A stretch of 64,000 nucleotides of DNA from a virus (lineage: Duplodnaviria > Heunggongvirae > Uroviricota > Caudoviricetes). Under the pieces are notes generated by a model. The model saw nothing but the letters and a program-made list of their open reading frames with translations, searched no databases and was not told where the DNA came from. This document shows positions 4,311-12,778 of the stretch, in pieces (position 1 is the stretch's first letter; each line of letters starts with the position of its first letter). A program made the position numbers and the translations under genes. The stretch is taken from IMG/VR virus record IMGVR_UViG_3300042922_001018; one strand, 5' to 3'.

Positions 4311-6473
4311 TCAGAGCGTGCAGGAGACGCACTCCGAAACGTCGGTGCCTTCCAGAGCCATCTGGCGCAGGCGGATGTAGTAGATGGTCTTGATGCCCTT
4401 CTTCCACGCGTAAATCTGTGCGCGGTTGATGTCACGGGTCGTAGCCGTGTCCTTGAAGAACAGCGTCAGCGAGAGACCCTGGTCCACGTGCTCGGTCGCC
4501 GCCGCGTACACGTCGATGACCTTCTCGTATCCCAGCTCGTACGCGTCCTCGAAGAACTCCAGGTTCGTGTTGTCCATGCCCGGCGCCGGGTAGTAGACAC
4601 GACCCAGCTTGCCTTCCTTGCGAATCTCCACCTTCGAGGTGATGGGGTGAATCGAGGAGGTGGAGCCGTTGATGTACGAGATGGAACCCGTCGGCGGGAC
4701 GGCCTGGAGGTAGGCGTTGTAGATGCCGTGCTCCATGACCGAGTCCTTCAGGGCCACCCAGTCAGCCTTCGACGGCAGCTTGACACCGTGCTTCTTGAAG
4801 ACTGCCTTCGCCTCGTCCGTCTTCGGCGCCCACGAGCGAGTCGTGTACTTGTCGAAGAACGTACCGTCCGCGTACTGCGACTTCTCGAACTCGAAGAACT
4901 TGACCCCGCGCTCGATGGCCAGCTTGTTCGAAGCCTTGATGGCATAGAACGCGATGGCCGCGAAGTACGAGGACACGAAGTCGATGGACTCCGGGGAGCC
5001 GTAGTGGATGCGCTCGCGTCCGAGGAAGCCGTGCAGGTTCATCTGGCCGAGGCCGATGGCGTGGCTTGCCTCGTTGCCCTTCGCGATGGAAGGTACCGAC
5101 TCGATGTCCGACATGTCGGACACTGCCGTGAGAGCGCGGACCGACGTGTCCACGACCTTCTCCAGGTCACCGAAGTCCATCGCCGCGGCGATGTTCAGCG
5201 AGCCGAGGTTGCAGGAGATGTCCCGGCCGATGTGCTGGTAGCCGAGGTTCTGGCGGTACGTCGAAGCGGTCGAGACCTGAAGAATCTCCGAGCAGAGGTT
5301 CGACTGGATGACACGGCCCGCGATGGGGTTCGCGTTGTTGACGGTGTCCTCGAACATGATGTACGGGTAGCCCGACTCGAACTGAAGCTCCGCGAGAGTC
5401 TGGAAGAAGCCGCGCGCCTTGCCACGGAACTTCGTCTTCTTGATGCGGTTGTCGTCCACCATCTCGCGGTACTTCTCGGTCACCGAGATTTCCGAGAACG
5501 GCTTGTTGTAGACCTTCTCCACGTCGTACGGCGAGAAGAGGTACATCTCCTCGTCGTTCTTCGCCAGCTCGAACGCGATGTCCGGAACGACGACGCCGAG
5601 CGACAGCGTCTTGATGCGGATTTTCTCGTCCGCGTTCTCACGCTTCGTGTCGAGGAAGCGCTCGATGTCCGGGTGGTTCGCGTGCAGGTAGACCGCGCCC
5701 GCACCCTGACGCGCACCGAGCTGGTTCGCGTAGCTGAAGCTGTCTTCGAACAGCTTCATGACGGGGACAACGCCGGAAGACTGGTTCTCAATCTTCTTGA
5801 TGGGGGCGCCCGCCTCGCGGAGGTTGGTGAGCGCGAACGCGACACCGCCGCCACGCTTCGAGAGCTGGAGCGCCGCGTTGATGGAACGCGAGATGGACTC
5901 CATGTTGTCTTCCATGCGCAGCAGGAAGCAGGAGACCAGCTCACCGCGCTGCGCCTTGCCCGCGTTCAGGAACGTCGGGGTCGCGGGCTGGTAGGCGCCG
6001 GAGACCATGATGTCAGCGATGCTCTCGGCGAGTTCCTGGTTGCCCTCAGCGAGGTACAGAGCGGCGACCGCGATGCGGTCCTCGTAGCGCTCCAGGTAGG
6101 CTTCGCCGTCGAACGTCTTCAGCGCGTAGCTCGTGTAGAACTTGAACGCGCCGAGGAACGTGGAGAACCGAGGCTTCGCGGCGTAGACGCGCTTGTACAG
6201 GCTCTTGACGAACTCGAACGGGTACTGGTCGAAGACCGCCCGCTCGTAGTAGTCGTTGTCGAAGAGGTAGTTGAGCTTCTCCTCCAGCGAGTACGTGGTG
6301 TACAGCTTGCGGTTGACGTGCTGAAGGAAATACTGGCGGGCAGCTTCCTTGTCCTTCGCGAACTGAATCTTCCCGTCCGTGCCCCAGAGGTTCAGCATCG
6401 CGTTCAGCTCATGGAACGACTGCTCCGAAACGCGCATTGACTCTTGGGTCGGCACCTGGGTAGAGGTGGTCAT
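4311..6473 (-). CDS. nrdE: Class Ib ribonucleotide reductase alpha subunit
   Basis: [37 protein letters not shown] and C-terminal CVSC motifs. RBS AGAAAGGA before ATG 6473. Confidence 0.97.
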
Positions 6474-6493
6474 GGTGTCCTTTCTCGTGCTCA

Positions 6494-7177
6494 TCACACT
6501 GTCTTCTTCGTGGTTGTCCGACGTTTGGCCGTCGAGGTCTGGGTTTGTCCGTCCGGCCCGTCAGGAGCCTGGAGAGGCGACACTGTCACTACCCCGGAGA
6601 CGAGAATCCCGTGAGAATCATGGTCTCCTGACGCTACGAAGTAACTCGGAGCGGTGAGTACCTGTAGGCGGCTGTCCGTCTTCTTCGGAACGTACGGCGC
6701 GACCTTCATCACAAGTTCAATCCACCGCAAGCGAGGCTTCGGTGGAGCACTATTCTCGTCTTCGTCTACCCTACCACTGACCTCGCCAGAGCCGAACTCA
6801 GGTGCCCAGAAAAGCCCGTCATTCCACCGAAGTTGGCCAGCAGGAACCCATCCAGCGGCGTGACCGGCACCTTTGAGGTCCAACCCGGTGCCCACTATCC
6901 GTGGGTCTGGGTCGGGCACCTTGACAACGCCGGATACTGCAACAGGCATCGTAGCGGGAAGCAGATAGGTCGCGCGATTGGTGGTGACCGCAACGATGTC
7001 CGACTCCACCTCCTGCACGGAATACTGCTCACACTCCGCCGGACCGTCCTCATCGAAAGATAGCACCGGCTGCCCGCCCAACTCGTCAATGAGAACTGGG
7101 GTACCGATTGACTGCCGAGTCAGCCCCATCTCCTCCGACTCTTCTTCAGCTACCGGCACGAGAGCGTAGTGAGACAT
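6494..7177 (-). CDS. Hypothetical protein between nrdI and nrdE
   Basis: Translationally coupled to nrdI (TGATG overlap). Confidence 0.6.
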
Positions 7178-7578
7178 CAGGCTCCTTCATCCAAGCCGAT
7201 AGACGCGAGGAACCGAGCAAGCCCCTGGCGGACATTCGCCACGTCTTCAGGGGTGCCCATCAGCTCGAACTTGTAGAGCAAGGGAACGCCGTACCGCATC
7301 GAAATGCTCTTCGCTGCCTTGCAATAGTCCTCGCCGAAGTTCGTGTTCCCCGCACCGATGACACCACGAATGAGCGAGGCGTTAGCTCCCGTGTCGAGGA
7401 ATCTCTCTACCTGCTTCGGCAGCTCCCCTCCACCGTACGAGGGAGTGACCAGGACGTACTGCTCAGCCATCTCCGGCTGGGTACCACGAAGGGCGACGGC
7501 GGTTGATGGCAGACCGACTTTCTCCATGAAGCGCTTGGTGTTCTCCGAAGCGCTGGAGAAGTAGACGACGGTGGGCAT
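7177..7578 (-). CDS. nrdI: Flavodoxin-like NrdI
   Basis: VYFSSASENTKRF, TPSYGGG, GAGNTNFG, FELMGT motifs. Leaderless TAGGCT-N7-ATG. Confidence 0.95.
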   Translation of the reverse strand: MPTVVYFSSASENTKRFMEKVGLPSTAVALRGTQPEMAEQYVLVTPSYGGGELPKQVERFLDTGANASLIRGVIGAGNTNFGEDYCKAAKSISMRYGVPLLYKFELMGTPEDVANVRQGLARFLASIGLDEGA

Positions 7579-7614
7579 GAGGACTAGCCTACCACCGGCT
7601 ACGTAGAACAGGGG

Positions 7615-7866
7615 TCAGACGACGACAACCTGCGGAGAGATGAGTGAACGAAGTTCGTCGAGGAGGTTGTCCACGACGCTCAGGAGGTCCATCTCCCGAT
7701 ACTGCGCCCCGTAGTCGGCGGGCACATCTCGATAGTCGGACATGTAGTCGGCGAGTCGAGAGTCGTCATCGAAGATGACCGTCATGTTGTTCGACTCGTC
7801 CACCACTGTGTACATGCCCAGTTCAATCTCGGGCGCGCTGCTCACGCTGATGCTCATGTCTCCCAT
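7615..7866 (-). CDS. Small acidic hypothetical protein
   Basis: ORF fills the gap with coding-like codon usage. Confidence 0.55.
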   Translation of the reverse strand: MGDMSISVSSAPEIELGMYTVVDESNNMTVIFDDDSRLADYMSDYRDVPADYGAQYREMDLLSVVDNLLDELRSLISPQVVVV

Positions 7867-7884
7867 GATACCGGCGACCTTCCG

Positions 7885-8958
7885 TTAAGCCGACTCAGGA
7901 GAGACCAGCGGGGACTTCACGTTTCGCCAGCGCCGAGAACCGAGCAGCTCACGCACTGTACGCGCAACCTTCTCACCCGTTTTCTGGACGACCGTCGGGT
8001 CATCCTTCTGGACGTTGGCCCACCCCGCGACGTAACGGCCGCTGCGGTCACCACCGGCAGCCTGCATACCGTTCGAGCGCATGAGGACATAAGCGATGGA
8101 CTCGGCCTCAACCTCCATCGCGCCACGCTGGCCTACGCCGCCGTGCTTGCTGCCCGTGTGGTACTCGTCCATGCGGTCTTCGTGTCCGGCAGCGATGTGG
8201 CCGAGTTCGTGAGCCAGGGTGCGCGCGCGTTCAGCCGGGGACAGTTCTTCGCTGATTTCGACGGTCTTGCCCCTGAAGCTGGTTGCCCCTTGCACAGAGC
8301 TGAGGCGATGCTGCGGGACGTAGGAAACCTTGAAGCCACGGCTTTCGATAGCGGCGGTCAGGTCTTCGGAGAATCCCTCTGGGGCATCTTCGGACAGCTC
8401 GGTGTACACGTCGAGGTTGAGCGGCTCGCCGGAAGTCTGCTTGATGTCGAAGGTCGGTACAGGCTTGAAACCGATGACTTGGTCGCGCGTCACAGGCTTG
8501 CCCTTCGCATCGCGCTTCACATTACCGGCGGCGTCCTTGTCTTCCACCTTCTTGATGAGGGGCGCCTGGATGCGGTAGCCAGTCGAACCTTTGCGAGGGA
8601 ATCGGCCCAGCTCCTTCCACTTCGACGCCGCCATGCAGAACTCAGCGGTGCCCTTGGACTGGATGCCGATGAGAAGCTGGTTCGTGAACGAGTAGTTGGG
8701 CTGTCGGGAGACCGCTTCCAGGTACCGGTTCCACTCCTCGTCGTTTTCGAGACGCTTCACTGCGCTCTCGATTTCGGAGACGTAGACCTCGGTGCGGTCC
8801 TTGAAGGTCTCGTACTTGACGACGAACTTGTTGTCCGGGCCGAGCTGAATCTCCTCCAGCGGAACGCCAGTGTCCAGCGTTACTTCGGGGGCGGCGCCGA
8901 GCTTCTCAGCGAACTTGCCATCGGTGGCACGTGGGTGCTCAATCTCTTCGAAACTCAT
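7885..8958 (-). CDS. Tagged ArdC-like ssDNA-binding / zincin metallopeptidase protein
   Basis: Leader tag, then YSFTNQLLI..W..LGR..RKG..I.AP (ArdC-N) and HELGH..EVEAES (zincin). Confidence 0.85.
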   Translation of the reverse strand: MSFEEIEHPRATDGKFAEKLGAAPEVTLDTGVPLEEIQLGPDNKFVVKYETFKDRTEVYVSEIESAVKRLENDEEWNRYLEAVSRQPNYSFTNQLLIGIQSKGTAEFCMAASKWKELGRFPRKGSTGYRIQAPLIKKVEDKDAAGNVKRDAKGKPVTRDQVIGFKPVPTFDIKQTSGEPLNLDVYTELSEDAPEGFSEDLTAAIESRGFKVSYVPQHRLSSVQGATSFRGKTVEISEELSPAERARTLAHELGHIAAGHEDRMDEYHTGSKHGGVGQRGAMEVEAESIAYVLMRSNGMQAAGGDRSGRYVAGWANVQKDDPTVVQKTGEKVARTVRELLGSRRWRNVKSPLVSPESA

Positions 8959-8965
8959 GCCCGGC

Positions 8966-8974
8966 TGTAGGCGG
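8966..8974 (-). promoter_or_regulatory. CCGCCTACA element (N7 to ATG 8958)
   Basis: Exact motif. Confidence 0.8.
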
Positions 8975-9006
8975 TAGCACCTAACCGGGCATGAGTTCGA
9001 TGAAGC

Positions 9007-10065
9007 TTACGCGCCGTAGACGGGTGCGGCCGGAACCTCTTCGAGAGAAAGCTCTGCGAACGCACCATCCCATGCTTCACGGAACGGCGCGTACTCCGAG
9101 GCGACAGCGTTCAGCACGACGCTCAGGTCATCGGCGATGGTCTCGACAGCTACCCACGCATCTTCCGGAGCCAGCTCAGCGTCCCCTTCGACAATCTCGT
9201 CGATGCTGTCCCGTGCATCCTGCACGATATCGACGACCTGCTCCGCCGGAGCGGGAAGCTCGGCCGCGCCCAGCAGAAGCAGCGACAGCGTAGCGATTTC
9301 GTCTACCTGCTCGATACGGGATGCGAGGTTAGCCTCGTTGTATACCGTGACCTGCATCCGTTCCATCAGACACTCGGCGAAGGAGCAGAACTGCGCTGTC
9401 GTGGCGAGGGGTGTTGCATCCAGCGCGAACTGGAGGGCTTCCGAGTGGAGGTCGATGGCGTTGCCCGCCTCATCAGTGAGTGCGAAGAGAGGGGACAGGT
9501 CGATGTTGTCGAGCACCGGGTCCGACTCCCCTTCCAGCCACGCTCCGAGACGAAGCACCGTGTCAGGCGCTTCGATGTCGATGCCGTGAGCTGCCAGCAC
9601 ATCCATCCAGGAGCCGGTCTCCGGGTCGTACAGACCAGCGGCCCCCAGCTCGGATGCGACGCGCAGTGCCCATTCGTCATCAGTCTCGATGCGCTCTTCG
9701 CCGGGGATACCGTTGTCGATGAGGAAACGAGTGAGAACCATCTCTGGCAACCAGAAGATAGGAAGCCACAGGAGTTCGGAGTTCATCTCGGAGGGCCAGC
9801 GCTGCAACAGGCCCAGGTCGTCTCGTACCGCAAGCGGGAGGGGAACTGCGCACAGAGGCGATGAGACGATGCGGTCACCCGCGAGACCGGTGACTTCCTG
9901 GAACCAGCGCTCGCGTTCGAAGAACGTCACGGGGTCAGCACCCCGGAAGAGAACCAGCGGCTCGCCGGGGTTACCGAATGAGTCGTCGAAGTCCGAGTAC
10001 ACCTCGTCAGAAGCGTTCGGGAACGAGATGGAGACTGTGCGGTAGAGGAAGCCTTCGTGTTGCAT
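9007..10065 (-). CDS. Acidic hypothetical protein adjacent to putative origin
   Basis: Long ORF with coding-like composition. Start uncertain (10065 or 10074). Confidence 0.7.
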   Translation of the reverse strand: MQHEGFLYRTVSISFPNASDEVYSDFDDSFGNPGEPLVLFRGADPVTFFERERWFQEVTGLAGDRIVSSPLCAVPLPLAVRDDLGLLQRWPSEMNSELLWLPIFWLPEMVLTRFLIDNGIPGEERIETDDEWALRVASELGAAGLYDPETGSWMDVLAAHGIDIEAPDTVLRLGAWLEGESDPVLDNIDLSPLFALTDEAGNAIDLHSEALQFALDATPLATTAQFCSFAECLMERMQVTVYNEANLASRIEQVDEIATLSLLLLGAAELPAPAEQVVDIVQDARDSIDEIVEGDAELAPEDAWVAVETIADDLSVVLNAVASEYAPFREAWDGAFAELSLEEVPAAPVYGA

Positions 10066-10074
10066 ACCTTTCAC

Positions 10075-10729
10075 CTTGCGGCACTTTTTGCTGCTACCCG
10101 ACGGCCGTCAACAACTCGCGATGAAGTGGGTGTTCTTAGTGACTCTCCTACAATCAGGAATCGCTGCGTCAGCGCGGCTGTGTCCGCGGGGAACACCCCC
10201 TACTAGGACTCCCCTTCTCTATTGCAATGAATAAAGCCCTTGTGCATTAACGAGGGATGCATACCGGGACGCAGTGACACACGGTCCCCTACTACTACTT
10301 AATTCTGTGGATAACTGAATTGGATAGTAGTAGTACAGGGGGTGCAGTTACCAGTCAGAATAGGGGTTCTCCCCGTTCCACAGCCTGTGGAGAAAGTTAT
10401 CCACAGGCTGTGGATAACTCGTGTCCCGGTTGAGTTAAGGTGGGACGCACCCTAACTAAAACCCCAGGTCAGAGGGCGAAAAAACGGGACGCAAGGTCCG
10501 AAAACACGTTTTACCGTCTGACCTGGGGTTTTCTTGAAACGGCCCTTTCCCTCCGATGCCCCGTGCGTCCCGAGGCCTGTTTCACCAGGGTTATCCACAG
10601 GCTGTGGATAACTTTTGGGCTGTGCACAACGAGGGAAGACACCTGTTCTGCGATGCTCCTTGCACGCAAAACGCCTTCGGGACGCACATTTTGCTTCATG
10701 TGCGTCCCGAAGGCGTGATTGTGGGGTTC
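10075..10729. other. Putative oriC-like replication origin (DnaA-box cluster)
   Basis: Non-coding and less GC-rich. Perfect TTATCCACA boxes at 10306, 10397, 10409, 10591 and 10603, plus degenerate ones. (CTA)n/(TAG)n tracts at 10289-10299 and 10325-10335. Six GGGACGCA 8-mers. Confidence 0.7.
10668..10716 (-). terminator. Intrinsic terminator of CCA-enzyme gene
   Basis: 19-bp perfect inverted repeat (10671-10689 / 10698-10716) followed by a short T-run on the minus strand. Confidence 0.7.
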
Positions 10730-12250
10730 CTACAAACTGAGGCGGTTCCGGAGCCAGGCAACGGCTCCTGCCTCATCCGTGAACTCGCCATCGTCTTGCG
10801 CTTCACGGGCAGCATCCATGATGGGACGGAAATCAGGTCCGGGCTTCATCCCTTCCGCCATCAGATGCTCCCCTCGAAGAAGACCCGGCGCCGGACGCTC
10901 AGCAGAAATCTCGCGAGACCGAGCAACCCAGTCCCATGCCGGAGTCTGAGGGACCGCGTCCTGGTCGAAACGCTTCTGAGCGCTCTCCAGGGCGCCGCTG
11001 CGGCCCCGAACGTCGGCTTCGGCGACGAGCGCCCACTCTTCCAGTGTCGCTGGCTCCAGGCGCCTTACAAGGCGTCGCAGTGCCGCATCCCCTGTCTTCC
11101 CGGCCTTCTGCCACGAGTGCAAGAACATGTGTTCTCCGACCAGCGGTGCCACACGAGCCTGTACCACTTGCGGGAACCCGGAACGCTTCAGGAGTTCGAC
11201 GGCCATCGGGGTGCCGTCCTCCGCATGCCCGGCCGAAGTGATACGACCATCGTCGTGTGTGATGGTAGTAGTCGCCTTGCCGACATCATGCAACATCGCG
11301 GCCATCACGACAACCGTTCGGTCGTACCCTTCCAGCCCTCGCTCCGTGGCCAGCCGTGCCGCCACATCAGCGGCCTGCGACTGGTGCTCGTACACATCAG
11401 CCTCAGGGTGCCAGCGTACGTCCTGTGGCAGACCGATGGTTGCGTTCAGCTCGGGGAAGTGCTCCACCCAGCCGGTCTCCTTCAACACACGAAGACCGGC
11501 GGACGGCTCGTCCGAGCTGATGAGCTTCACGAACTCACCGTAGACACGCGACGCGGGCAGCTCGTCGAAACGGTCCTTGATGCCCCGACACAGAGCGACA
11601 GTATCCGGGTGCATCGTCATACCGAACCGTGCTGCGAACTGCATACCTCGCAGCACCCGCAGCGGGTCATCGTCGAACGCGTCTGAGGTGTGGCGCAGGA
11701 TGCCGTCTTCCAGGTCGCGCTCACCGTTGAACGGGTCGATGACCTCTCCGGTATCCGGCTCCCACCCGATAGCGTTGATGGTGAAGTCGCGACGTGCGAA
11801 TGCGTCATGCGCGTTCATCGTCGGGTCCACAACTACCTCGAAGCCTCGGTGCCCGGCGCCGGTCTTGGACTCCCGTCGCGGGACCGAGACATCGTAGTCC
11901 TCATCGCCGACAGTGACCTTCAGCACGCCGAATGAGGCACCCACTTCAGAGACGTTGCCGACCTTCGCCAGATGCGGGATGAGGTCACGGAGTCCCTTCA
12001 CTTCGTGGACCTCAATGTCGATGTCGTGCCCTGCTCCTCCAGCGTCACCCCGAAGAGCGTCACGGACGGCACCTCCGACAATGAGCGGCTTCCCTCCGGC
12101 AGCTCGGCACGCCTGAAGGATGTCTTGTGCCACAGGGGTCAGTGGGACAAGGTTCTGCTCGTATCGAGTGTTCATGAGGCTCACTTCTGGGCCGGTTCCG
12201 CTCTTATGAGAGAATCGGCCGTTCTCTTCGCGCGGCTGGATGGTGTTCAT
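10730..12250 (-). CDS. cca: Tagged tRNA nucleotidyltransferase (CCA-adding/poly(A) polymerase family) with HD domain
   Basis: [36 protein letters not shown] motifs. N-terminal tag variant [21 protein letters not shown]. Start may be GTG 12265. Confidence 0.9.
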
Positions 12251-12286
12251 GTGCTCGTTGTCCACAGTACAGTGTAGGATGTTGGT

Positions 12287-12778
12287 GTGCAACCCTTCAT
12301 CCCGCCTGCTGTCACCCAGTTCGAACCCTTCACCGCTCTCGCGTGGGGTCTGATGCTGGCGGCGGTCCCGCTGTTCTTCCTGGTCGTGACCGCGCTGATG
12401 CGACGGAAGCTCGCTTTCGTCACCGCTCTCGGGTTCGTGGCAGTCACGTTCGCGGCAGGAGCTTTCCTGGTGTCGCCTCTCGACGCTGAGCGTCAGACCA
12501 CTGCGACGCGCAACAGCGTCGTCAGCGAGTGGCTGGACGAGAACTACCCTCAGTACGGTGGCGCCGAAGCTCTGCTTTCGCACTTCAACGACGGGTCAAC
12601 CTTCAAGGCGACTGCCGATGACGGCAAGCAGCGCACGATGCACTTCTCGTTCTCCCCTGAGTCCGGGTATCGTCTCATCGCGCTCACCGACAGCAAGCCC
12701 GCTGATGTGGTCGTGAAGGACGACCGTCTCGATGTTGCGGGTCAGCTCGCTGAGAAGGAAGCCGCAGCTCAGGGCTGA
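12287..12778 (+). CDS. Membrane protein
   Basis: Two TM helices. TAGGAT-N6-GTG leaderless promoter. Confidence 0.7.
   Translation: MQPFIPPAVTQFEPFTALAWGLMLAAVPLFFLVVTALMRRKLAFVTALGFVAVTFAAGAFLVSPLDAERQTTATRNSVVSEWLDENYPQYGGAEALLSHFNDGSTFKATADDGKQRTMHFSFSPESGYRLIALTDSKPADVVVKDDRLDVAGQLAEKEAAAQG

Follow-up and report, generated by a model that had tools for sequence, protein, structure and literature searches.

What is a tight cluster of DnaA boxes for when it lies on a large plasmid, with no dnaA gene beside it? The question is raised by a non-coding spacer in a 64,000-nucleotide stretch of DNA (the whole of which is hereafter called the window) that is filed under the virus record IMGVR_UViG_3300042922_001018. 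The spacer separates the gene of an acidic orphan protein, P0001, from the gene of a CCA-adding enzyme. A search of a protein collection recorded P0001 on a contig of 450,372 bp, and the replicon is a soil actinobacterial megaplasmid of about 450 kb. To our knowledge, the replication of very large plasmids in soil Micrococcales and related Actinomycetota is essentially unstudied. The window is gene-dense, has a GC content of 62% and carries 87% of its coding sequence on the minus strand. A hidden Markov model (HMM) built from seven DnaA proteins found no DnaA homologue in the six-frame translation of the 64 kb, and none of ten open reading frames (ORFs) scanned on the flanks of the spacer contained a dnaA or dnaN domain, in line with an earlier reading of the sequence alone (hereafter, the original prediction), in which neither gene was adjacent.

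The spacer may well be a docking site for host DnaA. Its likeliest single role is that of an origin, vegetative or auxiliary, from which megaplasmids of this clade replicate. We put this reading forward tentatively, and a role as a control site that senses or soaks up DnaA is nearly as likely. An origin is suggested by the conservation of the clustered boxes, by their position at the most AT-rich DNA of the window and by the conservation of the non-coding slot in related plasmids. The host-DnaA-dependent origin of the original prediction stands as far as the conserved cluster and the AT-rich element are concerned, while strand skew, tract polarity and the related plasmids speak against it. If the spacer is an origin, it would be a plasmid origin run by host DnaA without an initiator gene of its own beside it, and a natural case of a swap of initiator-binding modules at a fixed slot, since a relative has classical repeats there. 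If it is a control or titration site, it would represent a mobile element that taps the replication-initiation circuit of its host.

A Conserved Cluster of DnaA Boxes

The perfect box TTATCCACA occurs five times in the window and every copy falls within the same 306 bp (10306-10611), at 10306 (minus strand), 10397 (plus), 10409 (minus), 10591 (plus) and 10603 (minus). About 0.09 copies would be expected per 64 kb, and five or more were found in none of 100 shuffles. Four of the copies form two head-to-head pairs, whose palindromes of 23-24 bp (to 10419 and 10613, respectively) are identical in sequence, pair 2 being an inverted copy of pair 1 with its flanks included. Together with three degenerate boxes at 10374 (three mismatches, with the TCCACA core alone kept), 10386 (one mismatch) and 10621 (two mismatches), the perfect boxes fit into 324 bp. 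The original prediction had listed all of these boxes, the two identical inverted pairs, the inverted tracts that flank the box at 10306, a 15-bp inverted repeat and six copies of the 8-mer GGGACGCA, and each of these features was found as described and in its predicted position.

The conservation of the spacer was assessed in a metagenome contig of 6,967 bp (L059), which is about 80% identical to the window over positions 4601-11606. Between the two sequences, the whole spacer is 69.6% identical and the part outside the listed features 58% identical. Against this remainder, the five perfect boxes have kept 43 of 45 positions (P about 2e-8). Pair 1 carries one change, and in pair 2 only the central base is altered, so that the palindrome is preserved. 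The single box at 10306 reads TTGTCCACA in L059, the other common, standard form of the actinobacterial DnaA box and a classic variant. A block of 102 positions that spans the degenerate pair and pair 1 (10374-10475) is kept at 94 of them (92%), and the arms of the long hairpin that follows are kept at 30 of 30, with a diverged loop; the folding of this hairpin has a z-score of -5.9. The degenerate box at 10621 is not kept. Judging by these counts, the boxes are clustered beyond chance and under purifying selection.

It is very unlikely that the boxes are bound by a protein of the element itself instead of DnaA, or that the spacer is a captured and decaying piece of host oriC, as the original prediction had considered. 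The plasmid does have promoter and regulator motifs of its own, and perfect boxes alone do not prove DnaA binding. Neither idea sits well with a relative that turns one box into a variant DnaA box, nor with boxes conserved well above background, and the flanks of the pairs show no similarity to those of the same pair at 119 metagenome and 12 chromosomal loci.

The single box lies within the AT-richest 40-mer of the window (28 of 40 positions, a unique maximum in 64 kb), in a candidate unwinding element (Table 1). The tracts on its two sides, CTACTACTACT and TAGTAGTAGTA, contain the only two copies of TAGTAGTAG in the window, which are inverted around the box. In L059, the right TAG tract is kept at 11 of 11 positions and comprises four TAG units, and the 10-bp distance between box and tract is kept in length with a diverged sequence. 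The left CTA tract is kept at 7 of 11 positions.

From this layout, a course of events can be proposed for an origin. Host DnaA would fill the high-affinity boxes, namely the single box, the four-box block formed by the degenerate pair and pair 1, and, at a distance of 170 bp, pair 2. Melting would then set in over the 46 bp of AT-rich DNA that surround the single box, and the plus-strand tract of three to four TAG units would be held single-stranded by box-bound DnaA, in the manner of the recruitment of the single-stranded DNA unwinding element ("ssDUE recruitment") at oriC of Escherichia coli and Thermotoga. Helicase loading would follow, with either host DnaB or a primase-helicase of the plasmid itself, and transcription would be kept away from the complex by the two strong hairpin terminators.

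A Non-coding Slot Shared by Related Plasmids

Homologues of P0001 with 37-40% identity were identified by tblastn on nine complete plasmids of 149-608 kb from cultured members of the genera Arthrobacter, Pseudarthrobacter, Paenarthrobacter, Curtobacterium and Glaciihabitans. In the Glaciihabitans plasmid (NZ_CP043654.1), the spacer that lies upstream of the P0001 homologue is 564 bp long and accounts for 10 of the plasmid's 37 copies of GGTAAC and for all seven of GGTAACT. It also contains the AT-richest 40-mer of that plasmid (30 of 40 positions), which is formed by a (TA)n tract, as well as a CTACTAC motif, and it lies beside a strand switch, about 700 bp away, that heads 25 co-oriented genes. 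We list this spacer as a candidate iteron-type origin (Table 1). The syntenic spacer of Curtobacterium D40 measures 649 bp and has the second AT-richest 40-mer of the 200 kb read. In the Arthrobacter-type plasmids, the gene of the P0001 homologue is the first of an operon that also encodes a PHP-domain protein and DnaE, and the spacer is short and ordinary.

These arrangements support a conserved non-coding slot that would be furnished with lineage-specific binding sites, putative iterons in Glaciihabitans and DnaA boxes in the window. Among the comparative evidence, nothing speaks more strongly for an origin than the conservation of this slot.

Some further features of these loci are recorded here. 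The operon with the PHP-domain protein and DnaE is found on plasmids of Pseudarthrobacter, Arthrobacter and Paenarthrobacter (L130, L131 and L136), two of which carry a gene for a sigma-70-family protein of about 990 residues divergent from the P0001 homologue. Two Curtobacterium spacers (L132, 4214-4629; L134, 2235-2883) each combine a purine tract, (AAG)4, with a mirror arm rich in pyrimidines. This arm is 28 bp long, is 89% identical between the two and forms a long purine/pyrimidine inverted repeat with the purine tract. A resemblance of the window's spacer to the syntenic spacers of its relatives had been noted by eye and was dropped, as blastn-short returned nothing significant.

Evidence that Weighs Against an Origin

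A number of observations weigh against the origin reading, and the polarity of the tracts is the first of them. TAG repeats are the motif that DnaA holds as single-stranded DNA in the origins of Bacillus subtilis, Helicobacter pylori and Thermotoga maritima (PMC10316083, PMC8235120). Trios of the TAG type are located 5' of TGTGGATAA on the same strand (PMC10316083, PMC8235120), usually with a spacer of 10-13 bp between box and trio, and a relaxed rule describes a trio as NAN (PMC8287927). Polarity counts, because its reversal abolishes unwinding (PMC8235120, PMC6669920). Box-trio polarity could not be read from the metagenome loci that carry the pair, and E. coli oriC and the cited papers were used instead; as read from its sequence, the unwinding element of E. 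coli oriC is found on the 5' side of R1, a box with the sequence TGTGGATAA on the strand in question. Trios were defined as runs of at least three (3'-GAT-5', or NAN in general) at a distance of 0-16 bp on the 5' side of TGTGGATAA.

In the window, the order on the plus strand is CTA tract, 6 bp, TGTGGATAA, 10 bp and TAG tract. The consensus TAG tracts thus lie on the wrong side of the box at 10306 on both strands, and the canonical trio slot is occupied by three TAC units, which agree with the relaxed NAN rule only and are non-consensus. For the box that they flank, the DnaA-trio-like character given to the tracts in the original prediction is not supported by their polarity. Relative to the four-box block, the (TAG)3 tract is on the 5' side of the same strand at a distance of 38 bp, a layout that might resemble the ssDUE recruitment of E. 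coli and Thermotoga. Compared with the basal unwinding systems of bacterial origins (incC of B. subtilis; oriC of E. coli and T. maritima), the spacer shares consensus boxes, an AT-rich stretch, (TAG)3 and the 10-bp spacing. The differences are the position of the TAG tracts, which lie beyond the 3' end of the box on either strand while oriC trios lie 5' of TGTGGATAA, the lack of dnaA and dnaN nearby, the location on a 450-kb plasmid and the arrangement of most boxes in head-to-head pairs. In this orientation the pairs correspond to the sites upstream of dnaA and to DnaA-reactivating sequences (DARS) and not to head-to-tail arrays.

Within the window, strand asymmetry gives no clear indication of an origin either. 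The cumulative GC skew of the window reaches its minimum at 12.7 kb without a clean switch, and the genes point leftward on both sides of the spacer, with no gene-strand switch at it. Skew at third codon positions (GC3 skew) tracks the coding strand, with C3 exceeding G3 on the sense strand of plus-strand and minus-strand genes alike. Since it follows the gene strand, raw GC skew here reports gene orientation and not the direction of replication. Neither pACHL01 nor the Glaciihabitans plasmid has an extremum of GC skew where the P0001 homologue lies; in the P0001 plasmid family, too, skew goes with the gene strand. The skew inflection anticipated in the original prediction was not seen within the window, where neither a replication-type skew nor a strand switch was found.

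The relatives add to this. Seven of the complete plasmids were scanned over their whole length for TTRTCCACA, and a cluster of DnaA boxes was found in none of them, the boxes present (0-2) being scattered and equal in number to the control. The core replicon of the family therefore does not need a DnaA-box cluster, and the cluster appears to characterise the clade of the window rather than the family at large. A search of a genome collection for P0001 had a single match, in a metagenome-assembled genome (MAG) of Acidimicrobiaceae (L120; 44% identity), with no boxes within 10 kb of the match. The eight perfect boxes in the 6.7 Mb of this MAG are scattered and equal the control. As to the conservation described above, all counts come from L059, the one true relative among the matches listed for the 21-mer palindrome of the pairs.

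The original prediction had further proposed that an initiator encoded by the element binds GGGACGCA, with the product of ORF 9007-10065 as a candidate. All six copies of the 8-mer in the window fall within 10266-10708, in mixed orientation, and with about 4.2 copies expected per 64 kb, their packing into 450 bp is far above chance. A role as iterons was nevertheless rejected, because the copies drift at background rate in L059 (34 of 48 positions kept, one of six copies intact) and because the copies at 10679 and 10701 pair with each other as opposite arms of the terminator stem of the CCA gene. The spacer shares DnaA boxes and an AT-rich stretch in non-coding DNA with plasmid origins that combine iterons and DnaA boxes (pSC101, P1 oriR, F ori2 and RK2 oriV). 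In contrast to these, it has no adjacent rep gene, its GGGACGCA copies are short and unconserved and point in different directions, and it has more perfect boxes.

P0001, the product of that ORF, is an unlikely fit as well. Its isoelectric point is 4.05, its acidic residues outnumber the basic ones by 68 to 15, and the net charge is negative in every stretch of 40 residues. It matched no Pfam or PHROG family, and no Rep family was found among the neighbours of the spacer. A protein atlas search gave no result, a scan of viral contigs gave no match, and a large protein collection held only 12 relatives, none of them named and one of them on a contig of 394,845 bp. A structure prediction, as suggested in the original prediction, yielded an AlphaFold model of poor quality (pLDDT 55.6). 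As the protein is acidic, matches no family and has homologues on seven plasmids that are free of the cluster, P0001 is unlikely to be a sequence-specific DNA binder or an initiator.

Head-to-Head Box Pairs in Other Genomes and Control-Site Readings

The 21-mer head-to-head pair was found in at least 119 metagenome contigs with GC contents of 29-70%. Among 149 ORFs that flank the listed metagenome pairs, Pfam assigned DnaA, YidC and SHMT eight times each, DUF436 and DUF932 seven times each, terminases five times, SpoU/TrmJ four times, MutS three times and ribonucleotide reductase (RNR) twice. The pair also adjoins glyA and mutS/trmJ genes, and in two contigs of about 49% GC it abuts the start of the gene for the large RNR subunit (L008, at ~1844; L118, at ~141), which would fit a control of RNR by DnaA. 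Exactly one pair was found in each of 17 of 401 sampled Actinomycetota genomes, and none for a control pattern. In 11 of the 12 chromosomal loci that were fetched, the pair has dnaA and/or yidC alongside and lies between the two. Nine of the 12 (among L179-L188, with the pair at ~1501) show a triple composed of a box, 3 bp, an inverted box, 3 bp and another inverted box, after which comes a conserved promoter-like block. This triple between dnaA and yidC matches the core of E. coli DARS1 in the order and orientation of its boxes. It may serve actinobacteria as an operator of dnaA, as a site of the DARS kind or in both ways, and the head-to-head pair itself is probably best described as a generic DnaA module. 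Autoregulation of dnaA through upstream DnaA sites has been shown in Streptomyces lividans and mycobacteria. Compared with these dnaA-upstream sites, the spacer has an identical 21-bp head-to-head pair. The chromosomal loci differ in their third box and promoter-like block, and the plasmid in its two pairs, extra boxes, TAG/AT element and hairpins.

These loci bear on the idea that the spacer is a DnaA-responsive operator, at which host DnaA would act as a transcription factor and gate transcription. Its targets would be the leftward operon (P0001, ArdC-like, NrdI, NrdE) or a plus-strand non-coding RNA running from about 10160 to the hairpin at 10458-10532, and it would tie the genes for dNTP supply or establishment of the plasmid to the initiation state of the host. 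The position of the pair between dnaA and yidC in 11 of 12 chromosomes, mostly just before the promoter-like block, is consistent with this, as are the pairs that abut RNR starts or lie near glyA and mutS/trmJ. DnaA is known to autoregulate dnaA and to control nrdAB (PMC8203912), and the downstream operon here has nrdI and nrdE. In addition, a conserved promoter core on the plus strand, a CCTACA core followed by AT, is located at 10146-10154; it points away from P0001 and is kept in L059. Against an operator speaks the distance of 240-550 bp that separates the boxes from the start codon. Pair 2 is also set apart from the operon by an intervening hairpin of terminator-like appearance, a consensus promoter scan found no promoter, and eight boxes together with an AT-rich TAG element exceed the known operators. 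On balance, an operator is a less likely explanation than an origin, though one to be taken seriously. As a separate observation, a transcript from 10146-10154 would cross boxes on its way to the T-run hairpin (10458-10536) and measure about 375 nt.

The orientation of the pairs also invites a comparison with DARS. In the core of E. coli DARS1, box I is on the plus strand and boxes II and III are on the minus strand, with spacings of 5 and 3 bp (read from the sequence; PMC6868365). The spacer pairs are oriented as boxes I and II of the DARS1 and DARS2 cores. They differ in their spacing, which is 3 bp instead of the 5 bp of DARS1, and in that both lack a following box III, which in DARS is essential and has the same direction as box II at about 3 bp; pair 1 has none, and pair 2 is followed only by the box with two mismatches, 9 bp away, which is lost in L059. 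A titration locus of the datA type comprises high-affinity boxes clustered outside the origin, where many DnaA molecules are bound, and a site for integration host factor; of these features, a cluster of boxes is present in the spacer.

A manipulation of host DnaA, either by datA-like soaking or by DARS-like nucleotide exchange, would shift the timing of initiation in the host and perhaps in the element itself. Perfect boxes are very rare in high-GC genomes, with eight in the 6.7-Mb MAG mentioned above, so that five of them would be a sizeable share, and a derepression of dnaA by additional plasmid-borne boxes is on record (PMC8203912). The orientation of the pairs is that of DARS1 boxes I and II, as stated, but the missing box III and the deviating spacing detract from the likeness, and the conserved AT-rich TAG element and hairpin are left unexplained. 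We regard such a manipulation as rather improbable. Much the same standing is given to a broader proposal, by which the element would carry a mimic of host DnaA control sites, here the head-to-head pairs of the dnaA-upstream or DARS type and a box between mirror-image TAG tracts, and would use it either to reprogramme DnaA or to fire a host-DnaA origin without Rep that has replaced the iterons of its relatives.

The palindromic form of the pairs raises the question of single-stranded DNA. As such, pair 1 folds at -9.8 kcal/mol and pair 2 at -8.9 kcal/mol (z-scores of -8.9 and -6.9), and each would form a hairpin of 10-11 bp with a duplex DnaA box as its stem. There DnaA could load helicase and primase for the synthesis of the complementary strand, in the way of the A site of the ABC primosome. 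DnaA bound to a box-bearing hairpin primes the replication of single-stranded DNA in vitro (Masai 1990, 1995, as described in PMC6127211). Initiation of this kind would suit the early-entry region of a conjugative element, on transferred or displaced single strands, and the neighbouring genes are of the establishment type (ArdC-like, SprT-like and nuclease). In chromosomal promoter regions, however, the palindrome must act as a duplex, which makes a hairpin explanation unneeded, and single-strand initiation is accordingly a doubtful proposition.

Paired boxes are also known from T5-like phages, which have eight boxes "in pairs separated by 3 bp" in inverted repeats of non-coding DNA, far from their origins (bioRxiv 10.1101/866236). 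The injection-stop region of T5 and the spacer have in common the 3-bp-spaced pairs set in inverted repeats, the long non-coding region and the setting in a mobile element; in the window, it is the two pairs that are inverted around intervening DNA. By analogy with the proposal made for T5, the paired boxes would anchor the DNA of the element, on entry or in residence, to DnaA at the membrane. This has very little probability in our view, for the function in T5 is itself only hypothesised, the two elements are of different types, the window contains no virion genes, and no homology to T5 was found.

Flanking Genes and Minor Features of the Spacer

The coordinates of the features discussed above are compiled in Table 1.

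Table 1. Features of the spacer region and of the corresponding locus in the Glaciihabitans plasmid; positions refer to the window unless stated otherwise.
Feature	Position	Strand	Remarks
Non-coding spacer, ~660 bp	10066-10729		Bounded by ORF 9007-10065 and the gene of the CCA-adding enzyme
P0001, acidic orphan gene	9007-10065	-	Downstream of the spacer; marker of the Micrococcales megaplasmid family
CCA-adding tRNA nucleotidyltransferase (PolyA_pol + HD; phrog_2244)	10730-12583	-	Stop end at right edge of the spacer; longest ORF, true start may be internal
Left CTA/TAC tract	10289-10299	+	6 bp before TGTGGATAA
Candidate unwinding element (CTA tract, box, TAG tract)	10290-10335		AT-richest 40-mer
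Single perfect DnaA box	10306-10314	-	Reads TGTGGATAA on the plus strand; flanked by tracts
Right (TAG)3 tract	10325-10335	+	10 bp after box 10306
Degenerate head-to-head box pair	10374-10394		Abuts pair 1; 3 and 1 mismatches
Head-to-head perfect box pair 1	10396-10418		3-bp spacer
GGGACGCA copy	10442-10449	+	Only copy intact in L059; in conserved block between pair 1 and hairpin
Long hairpin	10458-10532		15-bp arms, A4/T4 flanks; resembles a bidirectional terminator; midway between the pairs
Head-to-head perfect box pair 2	10590-10612		3-bp spacer
Degenerate box, 2 mismatches	10621-10629	-	Follows pair 2 at 9 bp
Intrinsic terminator of the CCA gene	10671-10716	-	Perfect 19-bp stem, then TTTT; -26.1 kcal/mol
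Candidate iteron-type origin, Glaciihabitans plasmid	L133 5104-5667 = NZ_CP043654.1 121600-122163		10 GGTAAC/GTTACC copies

To the left of P0001, the window contains genes for a protein with ArdC-N and zincin domains, NrdI and NrdE, and to the right of the CCA gene, genes for a SprT-like protein and a PD-(D/E)XK nuclease; both genes that border the spacer are on the minus strand. The arms of the terminator of the CCA gene change together in L059 in a compensatory manner. Searches of phage and plasmid collections with the spacer DNA gave no useful match, and Rfam returned nothing at the gathering threshold for the region and only noise at E <= 1. In Logan contigs from three soil runs, with k-mer depths of 333-922, the sequence of the region is identical with zero variants, these runs being possibly the source of the window and hence not independent of it. 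The contigs of all three runs end at the same point, at about position 8895 of the window in the 5' end of the ArdC-like gene, presumably because tag-coding DNA that is common to many genes of the replicon confuses the assembly.

Two small features of the spacer may be added. A mini-ORF of seven codons, from ATG to stop, is located on the plus strand at 10228-10251 in the second AT-rich patch of the spacer; L059 keeps its length and frame with four of seven residues different, and this conservation may be due to chance. At the right edge of the spacer, a near-palindrome of 17 bp (10719-10735) with two inverted CCTACAA cores overlaps the stop codon of the CCA gene, and its counterpart in L059 is a perfect palindrome.

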